DNA from: an uncultured Spirochaetales bacterium
Lineage (GTDB): Bacteria; Spirochaetota; Spirochaetia; SPDA01; CAZJBZ01
Reading direction: 5' to 3'
DNA: 64,000 nt
Assembly (NCBI GenBank): GCA_964594055.1
Contig: CAZQKT010000001.1
Coordinates: 11,577-75,576, forward strand
Every line of letters begins with the position of its first letter. Position 1 is the stretch's first letter. Positions 21,859 to 34,584 of the stretch are shown here, one piece after another. The notes beneath the pieces were generated by a model, which did not search any database, was not told the DNA's origin, and was given only the letters and a program-made list of their open reading frames with translations. Both the position numbers and the translations under genes were made by a program.

Positions 21859-22944
21859 ATGTCCACGCTTGGGATGCTTTCGTTCTGGTCTGCCGTCGGT
21901 TATTGGATCGCCGGATGGTTTTTATTTGTCGGAGTAAAACGTCTTTCCGAGCACCCCCCGCGGAGCACTCAGTCCCCGGTCTCGGTTATCATTCCGGCGC
22001 GCAATGAAGAACAGGTGCTTCCCCGGCTGCTCGATTCCCTCAATAAGCAGACCGACCCTCCGGATGAGATCATCGTGATCAATGACAATTCTTCGGACAG
22101 GACCGCTGAGATTGCAGAGAAATACGGCTGCAGGGTGATACATGTACCGTCAAAACCGGAAGACTGGACCGGGAAAGCGTGGGCCTGCTGGACCGGTGCC
22201 GATGCGGCAATGCATGATCTGCTGCTCTTCATTGATGCAGATGTATGGTGCGGAAAAGATGCCGTTTCCGCGCTCAGGTCGGTATGGCTGGAGCACGGCG
22301 GACTGGTGTCGGTCCAGCCGAAGCATATTACGGAAAAGTTCTATGAACAGTGTTCCGCTTTTTTCAACATCGTATCAGTGGCGGCAGCAGGCAGAAAAGG
22401 GAGTTTTGGTCCGTGTATGGTATGCTCTAAGAAAGATTATAGTGAATCCGGGGGCCATAAGGCTGTCCGTGATCAAGTAGTCGATGATGTAGCGCTCGCG
22501 AAACAGTTTTTAAAAAAAGGAAACCAGGTGACCCCGTTTATGGGGATGAGCGAGATGAAGTTCCGTATGTATCCGGGAGGTGTACGGCAGCTCTTTGAGG
22601 GATGGACGAAAAACATGGCTGCAGGTGCCACTTTGACCGGGTTTTTATCGGTAATTCTTCTTTTTTTCTGGTTTACCGGAATCATAAACTCTATTACTGC
22701 GGTACTGTTTACCGCTCTTACTCCCGACTATTGGTTATTGGCTGCAGCACTTATCACCTGCGGCGCATATGTAGTCCAAATTCATCTGCTTTTAAGGCGG
22801 GTGGGGCGTTTTTTCTTTACTACAGCACTATTCTATCCATTTTATTTCCTCTTTTTTTTGCTCCTGTTCTTCATTTCTATTATATTAACTGCGGTTATAG
22901 GAAAGGTGCGATGGAAGGGCAGAATTATTTATCTGAGGCGGTAG
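21859..22944 (+). CDS. Family 2 glycosyltransferase, carotenoid glycosyltransferase-like (CrtQ/CruC-like)
   Basis: 361 aa. N-terminal TM, a GT-A fold (VSVIIPARNEEQVLPRLLDSLNKQT...IIVINDNSSDRT, DxD in FIDADV) and C-terminal TM helices. Sits between carotenoid genes. Confidence 0.6.
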   Translation: MSTLGMLSFWSAVGYWIAGWFLFVGVKRLSEHPPRSTQSPVSVIIPARNEEQVLPRLLDSLNKQTDPPDEIIVINDNSSDRTAEIAEKYGCRVIHVPSKPEDWTGKAWACWTGADAAMHDLLLFIDADVWCGKDAVSALRSVWLEHGGLVSVQPKHITEKFYEQCSAFFNIVSVAAAGRKGSFGPCMVCSKKDYSESGGHKAVRDQVVDDVALAKQFLKKGNQVTPFMGMSEMKFRMYPGGVRQLFEGWTKNMAAGATLTGFLSVILLFFWFTGIINSITAVLFTALTPDYWLLAAALITCGAYVVQIHLLLRRVGRFFFTTALFYPFYFLFFLLLFFISIILTAVIGKVRWKGRIIYLRR

Positions 22945-22954
22945 CGGACCGATT

Positions 22955-23452
22955 ATGGTAATCGATATAAAGAGTGCAGCGGCTTTGATTTTCGCCAATT
23001 CTCTCGGCTGGTTTTTAGTTATTTTCTCTGCCGGGTTTTTCATCCATCGAATTCCGCTGTATCTTTTTGATTACCATTCTGCTTTTTTCCGCCCTTTTGG
23101 TTTCGAGCGGGAGGGGAAGATCTACGAGAACGTTTTTAGGATTAAAGTGTGGAAAGACTATCTGCCCGAAGGAGGAGGAGTGTTTAGGGGCGGATTTGTA
23201 AAGAGAAAGGCGGACACACGAACTGTCGGCTATCTAGAGACGTTTGCAAAAGAGACTTGTAGAGCCGAGTTCGTCCACTGGGTTATCATTCTCTTCTTGC
23301 CGCTCTTTTTTTTGTGGAACCCTCCTCTCGGAGTGATAATTATGCTTCCCCTCGTAGTGGTATTGAATCTTCCCTTTATTATGATTCAACGGTACAACAG
23401 GCCTCGATTGGTGAAAATTCTTACTAAGAAGGTGATAGACAGTGGCAGTTGA
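22955..23452 (+). CDS. Small membrane acyltransferase, CrtO/CruD-like (glycosyl-carotenoid acyltransferase family)
   Basis: 165 aa. Two TM regions flank a conserved loop; size and topology match staphylococcal CrtO-type carotenoid glycoside acyltransferases. Assignment is from context plus pattern only. Confidence 0.45.
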   Translation: MVIDIKSAAALIFANSLGWFLVIFSAGFFIHRIPLYLFDYHSAFFRPFGFEREGKIYENVFRIKVWKDYLPEGGGVFRGGFVKRKADTRTVGYLETFAKETCRAEFVHWVIILFLPLFFLWNPPLGVIIMLPLVVVLNLPFIMIQRYNRPRLVKILTKKVIDSGS

Positions 23453-24272
23453 AAAAATTCAAAAGGAAAAATTCAAAAGAGGGAGCAAGACGTACTTCAA
23501 CAGCAGTCTCTTTTTCCCTAAATCGGTTCGCAATGATGTCTTTATTCTCTATGCATTTGTCCGCACGGCTGATGATTTCGTCGACGATATTCCGCAAGAC
23601 CCTCGCGGGTTTTATGATTTTCGAAACCGGTATAAAGCGGCGCTCGAAGGAACACCCAGCGGTGATGTTATAATCGATTCGTTCGTGGCCCTCGCAGCAA
23701 GAAAACGATTTGATCCGGCATGGACGGACGGGTTTCTCGATTCTATGGAAATGGACCTGACGAAAACAGAATACACCACGCTTAAAGAAACACTCCGTTA
23801 TATGTACGGTTCCGCGGAGGTAATCGGGCTGTATATGGCACGCATTATGGACCTGCCCTACGAGGCCCATTATGCAGCGAAAATGTTGGGAAGGGCAATG
23901 CAGTATATCAATTTTATCAGAGACATCGATGAGGACATATCATTAGGCAGGACGTATCTTCCCCTCTCCGGCTCAGGACTGACATCCCTGCGGAAAAGAG
24001 ATGTAATCTCAACGGATTCCCAAACAAAACGTTTCACCTCGTTTGTTCGCAAAAATATTGATCTGTATTATATATGGCAAAGGGAGGCTGAACAGGGGTA
24101 CCGGTATATTCCCCGCCGTTATCTCATCCCTATCAAGACCGCAGCGGATATGTACGGCTGGACAGCGTCCGTCATCAGGGAAAATCCGCTCGTTGTTTAT
24201 GAAAAAAAAGTTAAACCTTCGAAACTCCGTATTCTGGTTACTGTTTTTAAAAACAGCAGAGGAGGCTATTGA
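23442..24272 (+). CDS. crtB: Phytoene/squalene (dehydrosqualene) synthase family
   Basis: 276 aa. First aspartate-rich motif YAFVRTADDFVDD and second motif (YINFIRDIDEDISLGRTYLP) of trans-isoprenyl diphosphate synthase head-to-head enzymes. GTG start overlaps the previous gene. Confidence 0.8.
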   Translation: MAVEKIQKEKFKRGSKTYFNSSLFFPKSVRNDVFILYAFVRTADDFVDDIPQDPRGFYDFRNRYKAALEGTPSGDVIIDSFVALAARKRFDPAWTDGFLDSMEMDLTKTEYTTLKETLRYMYGSAEVIGLYMARIMDLPYEAHYAAKMLGRAMQYINFIRDIDEDISLGRTYLPLSGSGLTSLRKRDVISTDSQTKRFTSFVRKNIDLYYIWQREAEQGYRYIPRRYLIPIKTAADMYGWTASVIRENPLVVYEKKVKPSKLRILVTVFKNSRGGY

Positions 24273-24274
24273 TC

Positions 24275-24958
24275 ATGGAGAAGGGCAAGGGTAAAAACAG
24301 ATTCGTCAATCTGCTCAAAGAGGTGTATTCCCATAAAAAAATTATTATCTTTATTCTCGCCTCTTTTTATGCGATGGGTATCCTCTGGCATGCTCTCCCT
24401 CTAACCTATCCGTTGATGCTGATCGTGACCCCTTCTGTGCTTCTTGTTTTTGGATTGTTTATTTTCGGTGCAGGGCTTCTGGAAGGGGGGAAGCTGTTTC
24501 TCGGCTGGTCGGTCGTCACTTTTTTGGCAACATTTGCCGTCGAGGCTGCGGGAGTGGCAACCGGAAGTATTTTCGGTGAATACTATTATGGCGATGTTTT
24601 GGGGGCCAAGATACTCGGTGTCCCTCTGGTAATCGGATTTAATTGGACCATCGTTGTATTCGGTATTGCCTCTTTCGTAGGTAGATTTATTTCGAACCGG
24701 GTATTGGCCGCCTTCCTGACTGCGTGCGGCGGCGTTGTTTTTGATTGGCTCATGGAACCGATAGCGATGGCCCTCGGTTATTGGGAGTGGATTGGTAATT
24801 CGGTCCCGTTCCAAAACTACCTTGCGTGGTTTATTATCGGGTTTGGAGCAGGTCTCGGTTTTTTTGCTTTTAATCTTCGCATAAAGAGTAATTATCCGCC
24901 GATATACGTACTTATACAGGCGTTATTTTTCATTGGTCTGCGGTTTGTTGTCGTGTAA
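24275..24958 (+). CDS. Polytopic membrane protein, putative carotenoid-modifying enzyme (CruF-type 1,2-hydratase-like)
   Basis: ~227 aa with 6-7 TM helices. It is the last gene of the crt operon. Assignment to the 'carotenoid biosynthesis protein' membrane family is tentative, based on context and hydropathy only. Confidence 0.3.
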   Translation: MEKGKGKNRFVNLLKEVYSHKKIIIFILASFYAMGILWHALPLTYPLMLIVTPSVLLVFGLFIFGAGLLEGGKLFLGWSVVTFLATFAVEAAGVATGSIFGEYYYGDVLGAKILGVPLVIGFNWTIVVFGIASFVGRFISNRVLAAFLTACGGVVFDWLMEPIAMALGYWEWIGNSVPFQNYLAWFIIGFGAGLGFFAFNLRIKSNYPPIYVLIQALFFIGLRFVVV

Positions 24959-24966
24959 CGGACACG

Positions 24967-26028
24967 TTATCGAGTCCGTTCGAGACTGTATGTAAGAAGG
25001 TCCATCAATAAACCTCGAGCTTCTTCATTCCGGCATGCAAGCATTTTTATCCGCTCACGCACTTCTTCGGCAATGGTTTTCACTGTAGTTTCCACTTTCT
25101 CTTTTATTCCGAGCCGGTCGATTCGTTTTTGAATAAACTCGATATCCTCCGTGGTGATATCCTTGTTGCCGAACAGGGAGAGAAGATGCTGTTTTTCCTC
25201 CCCTTCACCACTGTTTATAAGATAATGATAGTAGAGTGTTTTTTTCCCTTCGCGGATATCCGAGCCTATTGGTTTTCCTACCGTTTCCTTCCCGCCGAAC
25301 ATCCCCAGTTCATCATCCTTGATTTGAAACAATATTCCCAGCTGTGTTCCAATACTCTCGAGGGATGAAATCGTTTCATCGTTTTCTCCTGCAGACATCG
25401 CCCCGGCCATAAGAGGAAGAGAAAACGTATAGCGGGCCGTTTTATACGTATACAGGTGGATAATCTCGTCGACAGACCGAACTTTGCTGTCCGACCCCCA
25501 CAGAACATCTACCATTTGGGCCACCCCTACAAGAGTCAACTCTCTGCTGCAGAGTGTAAGCAGGCGGATTATACTCTGGTTTGGAAGGTTGTTTTTTGAT
25601 AGAATTTCAAAGGCCAAGAAGTAGGCGATATCGCCGGCGCAAATCCCTAACGCTTCTCCCGTGTGGACAGGGTCGGAAAGTTTTTCTTGATCGGCAAATG
25701 AGATATACTCGGCATATATCGATGGAGAACCTCTTCTGTGCTTGTCACGGTCCATGATGTCGTCATGGATGAGAAGTGCGGATTGAAATAATTCTTGCAC
25801 CGCACCGAGCGGGGTCGTGATATCTTCATTCGGAGAAGAGTATAGTTCGTACCCGAGGCAGACGAGAGCTCCTCTGATCATTTTACCCTTCAATGTAAAC
25901 GAGAGGAGTTTACTGCTTAAGCTCTCTCCTATCGGATGGATTGACTGCAGAGTAGGACCGTAACTGCTGATAAAATCATTGAGGTATCTGCTTATGCGTT
26001 CTTTTTTTTCCGCGATATACGATTTCAT
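24967..26028 (-). CDS. Polyprenyl diphosphate synthase (GGPP/FPP synthase family)
   Basis: 353 aa. FARM (LIHDDIMDRDKHRRG) and SARM (FQIKDDELGMFG) aspartate-rich motifs. Confidence 0.8.
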   Translation of the reverse strand: MKSYIAEKKERISRYLNDFISSYGPTLQSIHPIGESLSSKLLSFTLKGKMIRGALVCLGYELYSSPNEDITTPLGAVQELFQSALLIHDDIMDRDKHRRGSPSIYAEYISFADQEKLSDPVHTGEALGICAGDIAYFLAFEILSKNNLPNQSIIRLLTLCSRELTLVGVAQMVDVLWGSDSKVRSVDEIIHLYTYKTARYTFSLPLMAGAMSAGENDETISSLESIGTQLGILFQIKDDELGMFGGKETVGKPIGSDIREGKKTLYYHYLINSGEGEEKQHLLSLFGNKDITTEDIEFIQKRIDRLGIKEKVETTVKTIAEEVRERIKMLACRNEEARGLLMDLLTYSLERTR

Positions 26029-26044
26029 ATAGCGGTGATTGCCG

Positions 26045-26587
26045 TTATAAGGTCACGGAGAAACTGATGCGTTTTGGATGTTTGGTTTTGAAATTGTCAC
26101 TTCGGTCCGGACCATAGGCGACGAGAATAACATGTTCCCGCCCTTTCTCGAGTTTTGTATCGTAAGAATCCCCGGAATCAAGCGGAATTGTAAATGTTAT
26201 CTCCGTACCGGAACTGTCTTCTTTTCCGGTATATTCGATAATATCGTTTGTCCCGCCTAACTCCGTATCAGGTCTATGCGAGAAAGCACCATCACCGAAA
26301 TGATCTTCGATAAAAAGTTCTCCCCCTTCAACATATCCGATAATGAAATTGGCATCTTTCATGGCATTAGAGGGATCGAAACCGACCCCAATCCATCCTT
26401 GTGTCGGTGCGTGTACAATAAACTCGGCATTGCCGCCCGATATCTTCCATTTGAACATGACACCTGCAGTCTCAACCGTTGTATACCCTTCACTGTCAAC
26501 AACGGGCTCTGCTTCTACTGAACCACCGGCAAAACTGAGACCGGCTACAATTGCGGCTAACATGAGAACACATAAAGCTTTCTTCAT
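26045..26587 (-). CDS. Secreted hypothetical protein (DOMON/CBM9-like beta-sandwich?)
   Basis: 180 aa with a signal peptide (MKKALCVLMLAAIVAGLSFAGG). G/D-rich beta-strand pattern; fold assignment is speculative. Confidence 0.3.
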   Translation of the reverse strand: MKKALCVLMLAAIVAGLSFAGGSVEAEPVVDSEGYTTVETAGVMFKWKISGGNAEFIVHAPTQGWIGVGFDPSNAMKDANFIIGYVEGGELFIEDHFGDGAFSHRPDTELGGTNDIIEYTGKEDSSGTEITFTIPLDSGDSYDTKLEKGREHVILVAYGPDRSDNFKTKHPKRISFSVTL

Positions 26588-26660
26588 ACCATCTCTCCTC
26601 TACTGAAACGTATTCTAAATAATAAAGAATGTAAAGAATACCGTATAAATACTAGTTCCG

Positions 26661-27650
26661 TCATGATTTCGGCAGAAGCATTCTGTAGAGTTTTTTCCTT
26701 TCAAACTCGCCGGCGTACAAAAAGTAGTCTGCAATTCCTGGAGGTACATGCGGCAGCACCGTTTCTGTGAGGTAAAAGTTGCCGGGTTTGGCAAACCGCT
26801 TTCCTAAATGATAGAGAGAGTTTACGGTATCGGAAATGACTGTTCCAGTATCACCCCGCTTTCTATATACCGTGTTCCCGATATCGAGAACGATGCGGTA
26901 GGACAGCAGGATATCATGTGGAAACTCCTCTGTGCTTATAATGGTCCTGTTGAGGATTATTTTAAAACATTCCAGAATTGGATCGCACGTGTGTCCATCG
27001 AACGGGAAAAGTACCAGGCCGCCGAATTGGTCCCAAATCCAGATGTTTCCATTCATCGGCGAAACCCGTCGTTCGATGAAATTGTGAAAATCTGTACCAA
27101 CTTTATCGAGGTGATATTTACCGGATTTCTTTTCCCAATCAGCGTGCAGATCCAGTTCGGTAAACATAAAGCAGAACGTATATTCTTTGCCCGGTTTTAT
27201 AGTTTTCCAATCTTTTCCCGAATAGATAGTAGGAGTATCTTTTTCCGCAACCTCTGTACCAACAATTTTGTGTGTATCTGCATATTTGAGAATCTGTTTT
27301 ATCCGTTTTGAAGGGATTCCTTTTTTGAGAATCGTTTGGCCGATATAATCTATTGCTCCTGCATGAAAAAGTGCGGCCGGGTCATTGATGATTCCGTTTT
27401 TATCAATAATCCCAATGCGTGAACTGTCTTGCTTCGCTAGAAAACGGACGAGCTTTGTTTGGTCGCGCCATCCGGGAGCTGAAATGTCGAGATAGTAAAT
27501 GGTGTCACTATTTTGTTTTTTTACGGCATCTTTCAGTTCGGAAACCGGTTTTACGGAAAAATCAAAATTGCGGGCCCTGCCGAGCGAATCAAACTTTTTT
27601 ATGACCGTATCGTTATCGGAATAAAGAATTATTGTCATACCGGCTCCCAT
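26661..27650 (-). CDS. Class III nucleotidyl-cyclase homologue, C2-like (degenerate metal site, conserved DTVN transition-state motif)
   Basis: 329 aa. C-terminal half: FCFMFTELDLHAD...GNIWIWDQFGGLVLFPF...YRIVLDIGNTVY...SDTVNSLYHLGKRF. The first-half Asp motif is degenerate but the 'GDTVN' motif is intact. The N-terminal ~150 aa is an unknown (REC-like?) domain. Overlaps the upstream gene by 16 nt. Confidence 0.45.
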   Translation of the reverse strand: MGAGMTIILYSDNDTVIKKFDSLGRARNFDFSVKPVSELKDAVKKQNSDTIYYLDISAPGWRDQTKLVRFLAKQDSSRIGIIDKNGIINDPAALFHAGAIDYIGQTILKKGIPSKRIKQILKYADTHKIVGTEVAEKDTPTIYSGKDWKTIKPGKEYTFCFMFTELDLHADWEKKSGKYHLDKVGTDFHNFIERRVSPMNGNIWIWDQFGGLVLFPFDGHTCDPILECFKIILNRTIISTEEFPHDILLSYRIVLDIGNTVYRKRGDTGTVISDTVNSLYHLGKRFAKPGNFYLTETVLPHVPPGIADYFLYAGEFERKKLYRMLLPKS

Positions 27651-28561
27651 TCCAATTCATACGCGTAAAGTTTTCTGTCCCCTTTACTGTTGATCGGCAA
27701 AAACTTGTTCGATACGATTTCATCGAGCATAACTTTTATTACCGGGCTGATGGTAATCGAATTCATTTTTGTCTGGGTAGATTCTATTTCCAATATACGT
27801 TTGATTGTATCACTTTTTGACAGTTCCTCTTCCTTTTCCGTGTATTCGAAGGAGCCGGAATGGACCGCAATACGGACTTTGAGAGGAGACTTGAGTTTAT
27901 TGTCAATACAATTGTATAAAAAGATGGAATGGATAATCTCCATTGCCGCCAATGTGGCGAGCAGATGCCTGTTGGAGAAGAAAAAAGCTGCCAAGCCCCC
28001 ATCACCTTCCCACGACCATATTCTTCCGTTACGCTTCACTGTAGAATTCTGAACGATGGTGCGCAAATCATCATACGCTTTTTTGACTTCTGTGGGAGAG
28101 TGCTGCCGGACCAAAGAGGTATTGCCTGCAATATCAACACGCAGAAACGCTATTGTGTACTCATCCCCCTTCTGAAGAGCGCCCCAATTTCTGGTCTGCC
28201 GATACCGTGAGTTTTCGACAAACATCTCATTCTCTTTGTCGTAAACAAATCCGAGTTCATAGACGCCGCGGATAATGTTGTTCAGATACGATATCGGATA
28301 TTTCCTCCCCATATGTCCGCTTTCCTGAATTTCGATCAGATAACTTACCAAATTGGGAAAAAGTCCACTTACTGATGCATCGGTGACGATCTGGTTTGCG
28401 ACCTCGAGGTTCGGAATTGCAATACTTGTCGGATAACCGGTCCTCTCGTATATATCATAATCGGGGATCAGCTTTTTTGCGATCATGCACATGGTGTGTG
28501 GGTCCATCGATTCCGCTAATGCTTTTGCACATTGGTTTAGTAAACTATTGGCAATCCGCAT
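27635..28561 (-). CDS. Class III nucleotidyl-cyclase homologue, C1-like (conserved metal-binding Asp motifs)
   Basis: 308 aa. AFLRVDIAGNTSLVRQHSPTEVKKAYDDL...KRNGRIWSWEGDGGLAAFFF...LKVRIAVHSGSF fits the F-x-D-I-x-G-F-T...K-x-x-GD-x-x-A-x-F...R-I-G-I-H-x-G pattern of adenylyl/guanylyl cyclase catalytic domains. The downstream 'DTVN..R' is degenerate (SDTIKRILEIE). Start ATG overlaps the stop of the upstream gene (TAATG). Confidence 0.5.
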   Translation of the reverse strand: MRIANSLLNQCAKALAESMDPHTMCMIAKKLIPDYDIYERTGYPTSIAIPNLEVANQIVTDASVSGLFPNLVSYLIEIQESGHMGRKYPISYLNNIIRGVYELGFVYDKENEMFVENSRYRQTRNWGALQKGDEYTIAFLRVDIAGNTSLVRQHSPTEVKKAYDDLRTIVQNSTVKRNGRIWSWEGDGGLAAFFFSNRHLLATLAAMEIIHSIFLYNCIDNKLKSPLKVRIAVHSGSFEYTEKEEELSKSDTIKRILEIESTQTKMNSITISPVIKVMLDEIVSNKFLPINSKGDRKLYAYELEWEPV

Positions 28562-30459
28562 TAAAAATCCTTTAAAAGCCCGTATTTCATTCTCAAAAGT
28601 TCGAAGAGGGAGGATTGTGTGAATATACCTGCTTCATTTTCTGTAGTAGTACAAGTACGCAGAATATCCGGTAGTAATGCTGCAGTCTTTTCTCTGTCGT
28701 GCAGGAGCACCACCCCACCTGTCGACTTCTCTATCGATTTTTCAATTTTATTGAGGATTGTCAACTCGTCAAGTCTTTTCGCACTCTGCATGCGGTAATC
28801 AAAACTGTCTATTTGGAAAATTATCATTTCCATTCCCAGCTCTCGGACTGCTTGATCTACCTTTTCATTGCGGCCCGCTTCCGCATAGGGAGGACGGAAA
28901 TAGCGCATCGGATAATGATACCCGAGCAATGCATCCAACGCCGTTTGGGTACGGATTATTTCTTCTTTTATCTCTTCTATATCATGTTCCCCGTCGTTAT
29001 AGTCCCCTCCGGAAAGATTATGGTGACTGTAGGAATGGTTGGCTATACTGTGGTCCTCTCTAATCATCCTGTCCATTACTCTCTCGGCAAGAAGTAAAGG
29101 ACGACCATGCTCATCCAGTAGGTTTTTCCCATTTATAAAAAAAGTTGCCGTAATATGCAGCGGTTTGAGAATATCGAGTATTCTTTCGGTAACTGTTATG
29201 TTCTCTTCTTCATCGATGACCGCGAGGTTCGGCCCGTCATCAAAAGTAAGATGAATTTTATTGCCGAAGTTCACAGTACTGTCTTCGAAATAGTAGATGC
29301 CCATCCCCTCTAGTACGGCGCTCTTTCCCTGATAAGAAGCTACTAAGTTCAGGCCGTTCTCGACCGAGACTGGTCCACCGTGCGTTGAAGCAATCGGTTG
29401 AGCACGTGCTTTCTCGAGTTCGACAGTTGCATCAAAAGAAAGGGCTGATCGGTTTTTCGTTTTGTCCTCTTTAGGATAAAAGACCGGTGATGTTTCCCCG
29501 ACGATTACCAGGAGGAGGACAGGTATGAGCACGAGTTGGAATGCTGTTTTCCATCCGACGGATGACACAATAGTGGCGAGACTGGTAATCTTTTCTGTAA
29601 AGCGGCTTAGAATGTCTGCAAGTGTTCGAATGGACCTGCTCACGGCAGCGGCAGTGCGGCGGGTGGTCTGCAGGAAGGTTTTATACCACTTGTACACATC
29701 TACTGCCGGCAACGAGAACACGCGATAAGAGAGACGGAAGTCCAGTGCCTGGAACTGCCCGTACCACATGCCTTGTTGCTCTTCGCCCCGCGCTAAAAGT
29801 TTTGTGGTTACGGCCTTCAGTAGTTTATTTGTTGTAAATAGAGTCGAGCCGGAAACTTTCGTGCCGTTTTTCCTGTTCGACTGCACTCTTTTATAGAGGA
29901 GGGTCTCTCTTAAAACGCGCAGATCACCCGCCCCGGACTCGAGAAGCTCCGCTGCTCTCTCACCTATGAGCAGCTGCCAAACCGTACAATCAATACAGTC
30001 GAACAAGTATCTCTTTACCGAGTTCTCGAGTTCTCTGCTGTCTTCTTCTCCGCGGAGTGATATATACAGTTTGTTGAATACCACGTCCGCTACGATCCGC
30101 GGAGGAAAAAAAATTTCGTTTCTCAAGGAGGCAGGTAATACAATTTCTATCGGATCGGTCTCTCTGTTTTGATGCCTGCCGGAAGAAGGAAAGGGGAGGT
30201 GTGAAGTAGAGGCGGCCTGCAGTGCTGCCTCGAGTGCCGAAAAAAACGGTGAAAAATCATCGTTTTTCCCTGCAATACTTTTTTGTGTATTGTAGGCGAG
30301 CGTTTGCAAAAGGGTCTCGATGCTCAGTTTACAGGCTTTGAGAGTTTTAAAACGGCTATGTTTTTCACGCGTAAAAAAATAGAGAATATTCCTCTCGTAG
30401 TGACCCACAGTATAATTATGCGAAAATTGCACGTTCCATGCAACACTGTTTTTATACAT
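28561..30459 (-). CDS. Membrane protein: unknown ~290-aa cytoplasmic domain + 1 TM + extracytoplasmic polysaccharide deacetylase (NodB/CE4) domain
   Basis: 632 aa. TM at FQLVLIPVLLLVIVG; NodB motifs LTFDDGPN (motif 1) and ANHSYSHHNL (motif 2), plus a downstream RPPYAEAG. First gene of a three-gene minus-strand operon. Confidence 0.55.
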   Translation of the reverse strand: MYKNSVAWNVQFSHNYTVGHYERNILYFFTREKHSRFKTLKACKLSIETLLQTLAYNTQKSIAGKNDDFSPFFSALEAALQAASTSHLPFPSSGRHQNRETDPIEIVLPASLRNEIFFPPRIVADVVFNKLYISLRGEEDSRELENSVKRYLFDCIDCTVWQLLIGERAAELLESGAGDLRVLRETLLYKRVQSNRKNGTKVSGSTLFTTNKLLKAVTTKLLARGEEQQGMWYGQFQALDFRLSYRVFSLPAVDVYKWYKTFLQTTRRTAAAVSRSIRTLADILSRFTEKITSLATIVSSVGWKTAFQLVLIPVLLLVIVGETSPVFYPKEDKTKNRSALSFDATVELEKARAQPIASTHGGPVSVENGLNLVASYQGKSAVLEGMGIYYFEDSTVNFGNKIHLTFDDGPNLAVIDEEENITVTERILDILKPLHITATFFINGKNLLDEHGRPLLLAERVMDRMIREDHSIANHSYSHHNLSGGDYNDGEHDIEEIKEEIIRTQTALDALLGYHYPMRYFRPPYAEAGRNEKVDQAVRELGMEMIIFQIDSFDYRMQSAKRLDELTILNKIEKSIEKSTGGVVLLHDREKTAALLPDILRTCTTTENEAGIFTQSSLFELLRMKYGLLKDF

Positions 30460-30513
30460 TTTTTATTCGAAACTATTTGATTTTTTGCACGTATATATAT
30501 TATCTTTTAAGTA

Positions 30514-32583
30514 ATGAATAAAGGTAATTTATTACAGTATGAAAAGAGTCCGTATCTGCTCCAGCATGCCGAAAATCCGGTCCACTGGAAACCGTGGGGT
30601 GATGCGGCATTTGAGCAGGCGAAACATGAGGATAAGCCGATATTTCTCTCTATCGGGTATTCTACATGCCACTGGTGTCATGTAATGGAGAAAGAATCTT
30701 TTGAGGATGAACACGCGGCGTCCCTGCTGAATGGGACATTTGTGTGTATAAAAGTCGATCGGGAAGAGAGGCCCGATATTGACAGTGTATATATGGATGT
30801 TGTTCAGGCCTTGACCGGGACAGGAGGTTGGCCTCTCACTGTCGTTATGACTCCTGAAAAAAAGCCGTTTTTTGCCGCTACATATATTCCGAGAGAAGAT
30901 ACGTATGGAAGAGTCGGGTTGCTCAATCTCATTCCCCGGATCAGCCAGGTGTGGAACAATGAAAGGGAAAGAGTAGATGAATCGGCCGAATCAATTGTGA
31001 ACCAGCTCGTTGCTAATGAGACCAGAGATTTCTCGGATAGGTTCCCGGGCAATGATGTGCCGGATAAGGCTTTTGTTGCTTTAAAGAGTAATTACGATGA
31101 AAAACATGGGGGATTCAATGAAGCTCCAAAGTTCCCTTCTCCCCACAACCTTCTGTTTCTGCTCCGTTACTGGAAGCGTACCGGAAATGAAGAGAGTCTG
31201 AACATGGTGCTTCACACTCTCACTGCAATGCGGCGGGGCGGTATGTTCGATCAGATAGGATTCGGATTTCACCGGTATTCAACCGATCGATTCTGGCTTG
31301 TTCCTCATTTCGAAAAAATGCTCTACGATCAAGCTCTTTTGGCAATGACCTACTTCGAAGCGTATGAAGCAACCGGAAACGGTCTGTTTGCACAAACCGG
31401 AAGGGAAATATGTGCCTATGTGGCTGAAAAACTTACCGACAAACAGGGAGGCTTCTATTCCGCCGAAGATGCGGATAGTGAGGGGGTAGAAGGGAAGTAC
31501 TACGTATGGAGCTGGAAAGAGTTGGAAAATGCACTCGAACCGGAAGAGATGGATTTTTTAAAGGAATATGTGACCGTTTCCCGGGAAGGAAATTTTCATG
31601 AGCCGGCAATCAAAGAAGAAGGGGCCAACGTTTTCTCACGTAAAAGACCGATTGATACAAATACAGAAAAAAACCAGTGGGAGAAGGTCCGGAAAAAATT
31701 GGAGCGCCTACGGTCAACCCGTTCTGCTCCTTTCAAGGACGATAAAATACTTACAGACTGGAACGGATTGATGATTATGGCATTTGCTGCAGGCTATAGA
31801 CTGCTTGGCGATCCGCGTTTCCGGGAGCGGGCCGAACAGGCGGCACAGTTCGTGCTCTCCAATATGAGAGAGGGCGAAGATGATCTTCTGCACATGTATC
31901 GGGACGGGACCGCTATGGTGGAGGCGAAACTGGACGATTACGCCTTTTTCGGTTTGGGTTGTGTTCGGTTGTTCGAAGCAACGTTTAATCCGTTCTACCT
32001 CGAGTGGGCGGTAACACTTGCCGAGAAAGCGCTCCGGCTTTTTTGGGACACTGCCCGGGGAGGATTCTATCTTACTGACCGCACAAATGATGAACTGTTT
32101 CTAAAAGAAAAACCGCACTTGGATATGGCTATTCCTTCCGGTAACTCGGTAATGTACGATCTGTTCACCCGGTTAGGACGTCTAACCGGTAATCAGGAGT
32201 ATGAGCAGACCGGAGAAGAGATCGGGAAAAGCTTATCAAAACAGATAACGAGTGTACCGTACGCGCATACTTATTTTCTCGCAGGAATAGAGGCGAACAG
32301 AGGCCGGCGGAGAGAAGTCGTTGTAGTAGGGAAGCCTCAGGACGAGCAGACGAAGAAAATACTCGACTTTCTCAACCACACCTATCTGCCGGGACAGATC
32401 GTGCTGGTAAAAAGTCCGGATGGAGCTTCGAACGGCGAACAGAACATTTCATCTCTTGTTCCACATATAGCGCAGTATGGGATGATCGATAATAAAACAA
32501 CGGTGTACGTCTGTGAGAACTTCGCCTGCAAGAAACCGGTAACTGAGCTTGAAAGTGTGAAAGAGCTCATAATTCGGCGGTAA
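30514..32583 (+). CDS. Thioredoxin-domain protein YyaL family (DUF255 + (alpha/alpha)6 barrel)
   Basis: 689 aa. N-terminal [52 protein letters not shown] (CxxC thioredoxin-like), then a glycoside-hydrolase-like six-hairpin domain. Confidence 0.8.
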
Positions 32584-32899
32584 GAATGAGAGGAAGGCTT
32601 GTCGCTTCGAGCGGGGATGCATCGAAACCGCCGAAATAGGTTATCGAAGGAAAACCGGCTTCTACCACATAACGGTGCATTTTCATTTTTGCCGCGGAAA
32701 TCATCTCGGCATCAGAATCAATGCCTGTAACCGCGTGTCCTTTTTCGGATAGGGCAAGGGCGAGATTGCCGGTTGCACATCCGATATCGAGAAGGTTCCG
32801 GGGTGGAGGAGGGAGCCGTTTTGTTATAAAATTTATTTGTTTTGCACTAAAAGGGAAGATCCGGTCGTAATAGTCAGATATGCTTGCATAAAAACCCAT
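32567..32899 (-). pseudogene. Truncated SAM-dependent methyltransferase (N-terminal ~110 aa only)
   Basis: Motif I (LLDIGCATGNLALALSEKGHAVTGIDSDAEM) and motif II region are present, then the ORF terminates. The remainder is absent in any frame, and its 3' end overlaps the convergent yyaL gene. Confidence 0.35.
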
Positions 32900-33441: not shown

Positions 33442-34584
33442 TTATTGTCGGCTTCTTAATACAAGAAGGGAAAAAAGAGCACCGTTTTTTTCGATACTAT
33501 ATTTTGCAGCATGGAATTTTTTCAGTTCGTCATCTTTGATTCTGAGCTTAACAGGGCGGTCGTCCACATCTTCCCCGTTGTTCAACAAAGCAAGAAACAG
33601 GTTCATATCTTCGATTTTTTTCCAATTGACGAACCGGATTGCGGATTGATCGATGAGTTCTTCCCGTGTAAATCCGCTCGCTTCGACAAACGCATCATTT
33701 ACTTCCACAATGTTCCAATCGTGAAACTGGATGAGTAAAGCACTATACACATTGTTTTCGATGTCTTGCCGGAGCGATTCGGGAATGACGTCGATGTGAT
33801 TGGAAGGTCCGGAGGGTTTTTCATGTAATTCGGTAACCGTGAAAATGCAGCCTTGAAAATCCCCATTGCTCCCCCGGTATAATTTAGGAGAAACCAATAC
33901 TCGCGCGGCGGTAAGCTCTTTTCTGCTGAGATCAAGTTCAAAAGAACGCTCTCCAACGATAGTTTGGTCCTGCCACAGTTTGGACACGGTTTCCACATTG
34001 GATTGGTCGAGAAGTACTCTTACATCTTGATTGTATATCTCCTCTTGTGTGTACCCGGTTATCTCCAAAAAGTGTTCATTTGCAAAACTGATCTTCCAGT
34101 TGTTATCAACAACGAGTAATCCATTTCTCATTTCCTGAACGATTTTTCTCAGCCGTTTTTCGCTCTCTTTGAGTTCTTTTTCCATTTGGTATTTATAGAA
34201 CGCTATTTCGATGTTGCTTCGCAGCTCTCGGTCGGTAAAAGGTTTTAATACATAGCCGTACGGTTCGGTCAATTTTGCCCTCTGTAACGTCGGCTCATCA
34301 GCGTAAGCAGTGAGGTAGACGATGGGCAGATCGTATTTGTCCCCTATTGAATGAGCGGTTTCTATGCCGTCTACATTTCCCTCCAGTTTTATATCCATAA
34401 GAATGAGGCCCGGATGCAAGCTTTCGATGCTCTCCAAAGCTTCTCCGCCGCTTGCGCAGACATCTGTTACCGTATACCCCATTTTTTCCAGTTTCCGCTG
34501 CAGACTTTCTGCAACAATTGCTTCGTCTTCTACGATAAGAATTGTATCTTTTAGGTTTTGTTTAACGCTATTGTGTACGAGCAT
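33442..34584 (-). CDS. Response regulator with REC domain followed by two PAS-like domains (no obvious output domain)
   Basis: 380 aa. REC: ILIVEDEAIVAESL...LILMDIKLEGNVDGIETA...KPF; PAS-like segments follow (ITGYTQEEIYNQD..., ASGFTREELIDQS...). Confidence 0.7.
   Translation of the reverse strand: MLVHNSVKQNLKDTILIVEDEAIVAESLQRKLEKMGYTVTDVCASGGEALESIESLHPGLILMDIKLEGNVDGIETAHSIGDKYDLPIVYLTAYADEPTLQRAKLTEPYGYVLKPFTDRELRSNIEIAFYKYQMEKELKESEKRLRKIVQEMRNGLLVVDNNWKISFANEHFLEITGYTQEEIYNQDVRVLLDQSNVETVSKLWQDQTIVGERSFELDLSRKELTAARVLVSPKLYRGSNGDFQGCIFTVTELHEKPSGPSNHIDVIPESLRQDIENNVYSALLIQFHDWNIVEVNDAFVEASGFTREELIDQSAIRFVNWKKIEDMNLFLALLNNGEDVDDRPVKLRIKDDELKKFHAAKYSIEKNGALFSLLVLRSRQ

Follow-up and report, generated by a model that had tools for sequence, protein, structure and literature searches.

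Soluble guanylyl cyclase of eukaryotes is active only as a heterodimer of its alpha and beta subunits and has a single catalytic site. The class III cyclases of bacteria are held to be homodimers with two sites, and the asymmetric one-site design has been ascribed to duplication and fusion in eukaryotes (PMC9552081). In the bacterial enzymes the two chains are arranged head to tail and each site combines the metal-binding Asp residues of one chain with the Asn/Arg pair and the base contacts of the other (PMC9552081). Variants of Rv1625c in which either the metal Asp (D300A) or the transition-state Arg (R376A) was replaced are each inactive, but are active when co-expressed (PMC4821796). Here we describe two adjacent genes, B and A, on a stretch of 64,000 nucleotides (nt) from contig CAZQKT010000001.1 of an uncultured Spirochaetales bacterium; this whole stretch is referred to as the window. 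Homodimeric bacterial class III cyclases such as Rv1625c, Ma1120, CyaC, Cya2 and 3mr7 possess two equivalent sites, every chain being equipped with a complete catalytic set (PMC9552081), whereas in every member of the B/A family examined the set is divided over two genes. We propose that B and A are diverged class III paralogues, translationally coupled, whose products would be obligate partners in a B:A heterodimer that has a single composite active site, and we put the probability of this reading at slightly above one half (about 0.52).

Both open reading frames (ORFs) lie on the minus strand, in head-to-tail order. Gene B (27635..28561) encodes 308 amino acids (aa) plus a stop, with an N-terminal helical domain followed by a C1-like, metal-binding cyclase-homology domain. 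Gene A (26661..27650) has a longest ORF of 329 aa plus a stop and encodes a receiver-like domain followed by a C2-like cyclase-homology domain. A preliminary description of the locus had reported these ORFs together with a set of motifs, all of which are present in the sequence, and had claimed that each protein keeps only half of the catalytic residues. The latter was found to be near-invariant in 105 non-redundant (<90% identical) B-A pairs of Spirochaetota, taken from 162 loci including metagenome pairs, to which all residue counts given here refer. The catalytic positions were anchored on alignments to 3mr7 and Ma1120, and the residue numbers of A follow the longest ORF.

The cyclase-homology domain of B (approximately residues 130-308; 27638..28174, minus strand) holds both metal ligands. 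Asp143 (VDIAGNT; 28133..28135) aligns to the first metal Asp of 3mr7 and Ma1120 and Asp187 (WEGDGG; 28001..28003) to the Asp of their GDG motif, and both of these as well as Gly188, which follows the second Asp, are found in 105/105 pairs. The phosphate-binding loop after the first Asp (D-I-x-G-N-S/T) is also kept, with N147 in 95 pairs and S/T148 in all 105, and the equivalent stretch of A is variable. The positions of the transition-state Asn and Arg are degenerate in B, where Lys254-Glu258 (SDTIKRILEIE; 27788..27802) align to GDAVNVAARLE of 3mr7. Position 254 is Lys in 80 pairs, Arg in 12 and Asn in 4, and position 258 is Glu in 50, Asp in 15, Gln in 10, Asn in 6 and Arg in 4. B also contains several invariant Arg residues, namely R177, R180 and R230.

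In the cyclase-homology domain of A (approximately residues 150-329; 26664..27203, minus strand) the losses are the reciprocal ones. The first metal-Asp position, assigned by alignment to the B family, is occupied by Glu165 (27156..27158), with Glu in 100 pairs and Asp in only one, and the second, which corresponds to the Asp in GDG of 3mr7, by Phe209 (27024..27026), which varies between Phe (50), Tyr (23), Trp (9), Leu (8) and His (3) and is never Asp. The Asn is retained as Asn277 and a His, His281, stands at the Arg position (SDTVNSLYH; 26808..26822, aligned to GDAVNVAAR of 3mr7). The transition-state motif of A had been described as intact, which is correct for the Asn (105/105) but not for the Arg, since the position is His in 102 pairs; the preceding S273 and D274 are found in 98 and 95 pairs, respectively. 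C2-type domains have a triphosphate-binding Lys near the C-terminus. Towards the C-terminus of A, position 319 is basic in 75 pairs (66 Arg, 9 Lys) and position 323 in 95 (85 Arg, 10 Lys), and B varies over the equivalent stretch; judged from their position, R/K319 and R/K323 may be the counterparts of that Lys.

Asn together with Arg occurs in no B and two metal Asp in no A. The outcome that would have refuted the preliminary description, a full catalytic set kept by both proteins or lacking from both, was not seen. In all of them the two metal ligands lie in the cyclase-homology domain of B and the Asn in that of A. This half-site complementarity is far beyond chance and is universal in the family examined. 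Across the pairs the B sequences share on average just 45% and the A sequences 37% pairwise identity, and the invariance of the catalytic positions therefore reflects selection and not recent ancestry. Conservation is furthermore asymmetric, the positions of the proposed active site being about 97-100% invariant and those of the second site (B254, B258 and A209) looser.

From these data we infer the following course of assembly, catalysis and regulation. B and A would be made together from the coupled genes and would then form a head-to-tail B:A heterodimer. To the composite site B would contribute the metal ligands D143 and D187 and its phosphate-binding loop, and A would contribute N277 as the ribose/transition-state Asn, H281 as a replacement for the Arg and, probably, the C-terminal R/K319 and R/K323 for the triphosphate. 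The second site, comprising E165 and F209 of A and K254 and E258 of B, would not bind the two metals and would be catalytically dead. A B:B dimer would have the metals without the transition-state residues, and an A:A dimer would be without a metal ligand. By analogy with the complementation between Rv1625c D300A and R376A, each homodimer should be inactive and only the B:A heterodimer competent. The composite site is supported by the asymmetry of conservation and by the closer resemblance of B to mammalian C1 than to C2. The output would probably be controlled via the atypical receiver of A and the helical N-terminal domain of B. The C1/C2-like division of labour that had been suggested for the pair agrees with everything computed here, in that B is the metal-binding and A the Asn-bearing half, but the site itself is non-canonical, with His for Arg and no base-specifying pair, and for this reason both the label "cyclase" and the identity of any product are matters of inference.

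The class III cyclase fold of both proteins, also part of the preliminary description, is borne out by agreement between family profiles, hhalign and AlphaFold/Foldseek; these deeper methods are unambiguous even though the Pfam model remains sub-threshold (see below). A profile of the B family (36 sequences) matched the solved class III cyclases 3mr7 (E=1e-5), Ma1120 and Rv1900c, and hhalign of the family against 3mr7 gave a probability of 96%. The AlphaFold model of B (predicted local distance difference test, pLDDT, 87.8) was matched by Foldseek to Cya2, CyaC, RhGC and Ma1120 (E~1e-9, template modelling (TM) score up to 0.82). For A, the family profile (41 sequences) reached no cyclase of the PDB by HMMER, and hhalign against 3mr7 was weak (E=1.7e-4). 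Against the B family, hhalign gave a probability of 99% (E=3e-18) over the C-terminal ~200 residues of A, and Foldseek of the AlphaFold2 (AF2) model of A (pLDDT 83.2) found Ma1120, Cya2 and RhoGC at TM 0.72-0.77. Neither the GG[DE]EF motif of diguanylate cyclases nor a GGDEF-type fold as best match was found.

By this profile comparison A is the nearest relative of B and B that of A, and the two are paralogues within one spirochaete-specific class III branch. They have unusual motifs in common, EYTF before beta1 and GRxWxW before the GDGG/FGG turn. Database searches gave 284 relatives of B (E-values to 1e-188) and 67 of A (to 1e-225), and an exhaustive profile search gave 218 A-family clusters at E<1e-30. 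Some sources have annotated B-family members automatically as "adenylate/guanylate cyclase domain-containing" or "class 3 adenylate cyclase", and A-family members are "hypothetical protein" wherever they are named; public precomputed annotation holds no Pfam domain for either B or A. The window itself has a match in a JGI metagenome contig. The closest genome locus is that of an uncultured Spirochaetales metagenome-assembled genome (MAG), with a B that is 94% identical, and a cultured host is Sediminispirochaeta smaragdinae, with the B homologue P0023. A metagenomic protein of 630 aa that matched the A profile, P0280, was considered as a B-A fusion and rejected since residues 1-425 belong to an unrelated P-loop NTPase. 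In this protein the NTPase-like part (GPHGSGKTT motif) is N-terminal and is followed by a cyclase-homology domain of the A type with no receiver; the protein is either a chimera of assembly or gene calling or a rare domain shuffle.

As would be expected of the halves of a heterodimeric cyclase, the two genes are inherited together. The search of 185,579 species genomes turned up 226 relatives of B, and the loci of the best 80 were retrieved, all of them from Spirochaetota or unclassified MAGs. A comes next after B, with the same orientation, in 77 of these 80 B-anchored loci, and the three exceptions are contigs that end at or just after B; the pair is therefore adjacent in 77/77 loci with room for it. 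Among metagenome loci anchored on A and with room upstream, a full B lies directly upstream in 62/63 and a partial B match in the 63rd. In this last locus (L089, approximately 1423-1926) B was seen only as a C-terminal high-scoring segment pair (residues 138-306) abutting A, perhaps because of a frameshift or insertion or because its N-terminal domain has diverged. Clustering of the flanking ORFs of 74 loci revealed only lineage-restricted synteny, in at most 16 loci and mostly with multidomain sensor kinases. Since nothing else is kept around the pair, the conserved unit is exactly genes B and A.

The genes are also tightly coupled at their junction. The distance from the stop of B to the nearest start of A is 0 nt in 35 of 105 pairs, -4 nt in 34, -1 nt in 10 and +3 nt in 8, so that 79/105 pairs have a junction of 0, -4 or -1 nt. 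Together with the strict co-inheritance, the prevalence of 0 or -4 nt junctions sustains the earlier expectation that the two proteins are made together. An overlap of 16 nt between the genes had been reported for the window, but it is probably only 4 nt, since in the A-family alignment the homologues mostly start at the position of Met5 and the sequence GGGAG lies 5 nt before the ATG of this residue. Translation of A is thus likely to begin at M5 of the longest ORF (position 27638, minus strand; ATG 27636-27638), which would give a classical ATGA overlap (27635..27638) with the TGA stop of B (27635-27637). At its other end B also overlaps a neighbour, since its start codon (ATG, 28559-28561) and the stop of the upstream polysaccharide-deacetylase gene share the sequence TAATG (28559..28563, minus strand), as had been described.

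Both N-terminal domains had been described as having no known function. This holds for that of B (approximately residues 1-120; 28202..28561, minus strand), for which AF2 predicts six helices and a beta-hairpin (pLDDT ~90) and a domain-only profile gave no PDB or Pfam match and no detectable relatives. Its residues S18, Y35, G42, A55, D61, G82, G85, G104, F114 and E116 are each invariant in at least 97% of the pairs. The N-terminal domain of A (residues 5-126; 27273..27638, minus strand), however, has the (beta-alpha)5 topology of a receiver in the AF2 model, and full-length Foldseek matches were to the REC-GGDEF regulators WspR and PleD and to DgcR. Its profile matched the NtrC1 receiver weakly (E=0.12), and there was no Pfam match to the response-regulator receiver family PF00072. 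The phosphorylation quintet of receivers (Asp-Asp, acceptor Asp, Thr/Ser and Lys) is not conserved across the 105 pairs. The acceptor, Asp55, is found in 101 of them, but the first acidic-pocket position is Ser/Thr in 99, the Thr87 position is Asp in 103 and the Lys109 position is Lys/Arg in only 69, with Gln in the copy of the window. Because the first acidic-pocket Asp and the Thr are missing and the window has Gln for Lys, the domain is an atypical receiver and may be a phosphorylation-independent pseudo-receiver. Regulation of the pair via this domain is plausible.

In the single-site design proposed for B:A, with one degenerate site, the pair would resemble both mammalian membrane adenylyl cyclase (C1/C2) and soluble guanylyl cyclase (alpha/beta). 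The C1 and C2 domains, however, belong to one polypeptide with 12 transmembrane segments, whereas B and A are separate soluble proteins encoded by two coupled genes, have a His at the transition-state Arg and are without the Lys/Asp adenine pair. They also differ from C1/C2 in their N-terminal domains, a receiver-like fold in A and a helical domain without assigned relatives in B. Since the family is spirochaete-specific and its two members are mutually closest, the B/A split would have an origin independent of that of C1/C2. Like soluble guanylyl cyclase, the pair consists of two separately encoded chains, both of which combine a sensor-type N-terminal region with a class III domain, but it has neither the haem/H-NOX-PAS-coiled-coil arrangement nor the Glu/Cys guanine-specifying pair of that enzyme. 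By analogy, B/A would work like these two systems and yet stand outside both families. A is furthermore similar to the REC-GGDEF regulators PleD and WspR in combining a receiver-like domain with a palm-type nucleotide-cyclase fold, although its receiver is without the canonical acidic pair and Thr. In Rhodospirillum centenum, which provides the closest multi-gene case among bacteria, a guanylyl cyclase is reported to need several gene products, of which gcyB and gcyC have been described as non-catalytic subunits (PMC4681086). We rejected these as a precedent for B/A because they are non-catalytic and not complementary catalytic halves (PMC4681086). In the literature searched, which was incomplete, we found no description of the B/A family, nor of any bacterial class III cyclase that is naturally split into two complementary genes.

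If our proposal is correct, a complementary two-gene pair spread across a bacterial phylum would represent an independent evolutionary replay of the one-site transition of eukaryotes, which would surprise cyclase specialists. It would assign a function to the A family, until now hypothetical, and would flag a variant of the catalytic site with His for Arg and no purine determinants. The pair would also offer a simple soluble system for studying the regulation of asymmetric cyclase dimers and their degenerate sites.

Several observations weigh against a composite catalytic site in a B:A heterodimer. No chain carries the Arg of the transition-state motif GDxVNxAxR, the position being His in A and mostly Glu or Asp in B, and R376A abolishes the activity of Rv1625c (PMC4821796). 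Neither protein has a base-specifying pair, be it Lys/Asp for ATP or Glu/Cys for GTP: the position of the purine-specifying Lys is Met (74) or Ile (30) in A and most often Asn (37) or Ser (31) in B, and the second specifying position, that of the Asp, is mostly Thr (59), Asn (16) or Glu (12) in A. The residue assignment by alignment that had been recommended for the pair thus located the metal Asp in B and the Asn in A but purine-specifying residues in neither, and since these positions are hydrophobic or variable the product is not predictable. In the Pfam search recommended at the same time, Guanylate_cyc (PF00211) scored 17.2 bits on B, below its cut-off of 21.9, and gave no cyclase match on A, although the B-family profile does reach solved cyclases and that of A does so through B or weakly. 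A profile search found no natural B-A fusion among the 150 best A-family representatives. The one cross-subunit covariation test, specified in advance, concerned A165 and B254, which might form a salt bridge in the degenerate site. Its result in 74 pairs was suggestive, but significance was not reached after metagenome pairs had been added and the set thinned to 105 (Fisher p=0.11). Finally, the relatives of the cyclase fold include 6yii, a precedent for a class III cyclase-like protein that binds ATP and is non-catalytic.

With no Arg and no purine-specifying residues, the pair could be a nucleotide-binding pseudo-enzyme or could make an unexpected product. As a pseudo-enzyme, the heterodimer would bind nucleotide and metal in the pocket between the metal ligands of B and the Asn of A, act as a sensor or scaffold that signals via its N-terminal domains and form no cyclic nucleoside monophosphate (cNMP), for which the sub-threshold Pfam score may also be cited. 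We consider this unlikely, if deserving of serious attention, because the metal Asp, the Gly after the second of them, the Asn-Ser/Thr of the phosphate-binding loop and the Asn and His of A are invariant or nearly so at 37-45% identity, which fits chemistry better than mere binding, and because an output domain, for DNA binding for instance, is attached to neither protein. An unexpected product leads to a more elaborate proposal, in which a C1/C2-type single-site two-gene cyclase of spirochaetes, with a catalytic His and a hydrophobic non-purine pocket, would make a non-canonical messenger (e.g. a pyrimidine cNMP) as a phylum-wide housekeeping signal gated by the pseudo-receiver; we regard this as speculative and rather improbable. 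The same anomalies of the active site have a different meaning if B is the enzyme on its own, as a homodimer with non-canonical residues such as K254, R180 or R230, and A is a dead paralogue that regulates B by binding or in mixed dimers via its receiver. Bacterial class III cyclases are by default taken to be homodimeric (PMC9552081), B has both metal Asp and, in R177, R180 and R230, invariant Arg residues that could replace the missing one, and A is without a metal Asp and has an N-terminal domain of regulatory type. This alternative is nevertheless disfavoured by the fact that N277 and H281 of A are 97-100% invariant, and hence more conserved than the residues of B at those positions, which vary loosely; the strict 1:1 coupling with its 0 or -4 nt junctions moreover suggests co-assembly in fixed stoichiometry. 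On balance we judge it to be quite unlikely.

B and A could also be independent homodimers with functions of their own, which are neighbours merely as the result of a tandem duplication. Although their different N-terminal domains would be in keeping with separate roles, every pair shows reciprocal catalytic losses that complement each other, translation of the two genes is coupled, and the full pair is present in 77/77 B-anchored and 62/63 A-anchored loci (with a partial B in the 63rd), none of those with room being clearly without one of the genes; we therefore hold this to be very improbable. A Pycsar-like anti-phage module, in which a pyrimidine cyclase acts with a partner, is hardly credible and was rejected: B matched the PycC model of PADLOC weakly (27.8 bits) and A did not match it, the fold matches to it are no better than those to ordinary adenylyl/guanylyl cyclases, no effector gene lies beside the pair, the neighbourhoods being variable and of housekeeping character with no conserved neighbour, and the pair is conserved vertically in Spirochaetota and is not patchy. 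The obligate B:A heterodimer is therefore the reading that we prefer.

As for the surroundings of the pair in the window, the deacetylase gene upstream was found beside it only in L001, the closest relative, and weakly in L043 among the 80 loci, and is thus lineage-specific. Of its 632-aa product (28561-30459, minus strand), only residues ~400-545 form a polysaccharide-deacetylase domain, and the ~380-residue N-terminal region is without a family match; the protein also has an apparent membrane segment. Two overlapping sigma-70-like matches (10 of 12; 28737-28772, minus strand) lie in the 3' part of this gene, ~180-210 nt upstream of the start of B, and might represent an internal promoter for B and A. 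A scan for promoters and terminators over 25900-30700 found fewer sites than in shuffled controls and hence yielded no usable operon boundary. Further upstream, an ORF of 110 aa (32567-32899, minus strand) comprises only the N-terminal part of an S-adenosylmethionine (SAM)-methyltransferase fold (Methyltransf_25/23) and overlaps the 3' end of a convergent gene for a 689-aa Thioredox_DsbH protein (30514-32583) by 17 nt; it may be the remnant of a truncated gene. A receiver-PAS protein of 380 aa (Response_reg and PAS_9; 33442-34584, minus strand) is encoded ~5 kb from the pair, a linkage that is not conserved elsewhere.

The gene directly downstream of A (26045-26587, minus strand) encodes a protein of 180 aa with a DOMON domain and an N-terminus that resembles a signal peptide. 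In a few Sediminispirochaeta-like loci (L031, L035, L048, L053 and L055) the pair likewise has a DOMON homologue in its vicinity, there on the upstream side. Just beyond the DOMON gene of the window lies a carotenoid-type gene cluster (21859-26028), with assignments from Pfam. It comprises a polyprenyl synthase (24967-26028, minus strand), a Caroten_synth/lycopene-cyclase-domain protein (24269-24958), a phytoene/squalene synthase of the SQS_PSY family (23442-24272), a CrtO-like acyltransferase (22955-23452) and a family-2 glycosyltransferase (21859-22944), and an amine-oxidase/desaturase is encoded beyond 21859, upstream of that coordinate. The gene content of this cluster suggests a pathway for a glycosylated, acylated carotenoid in this spirochaete.

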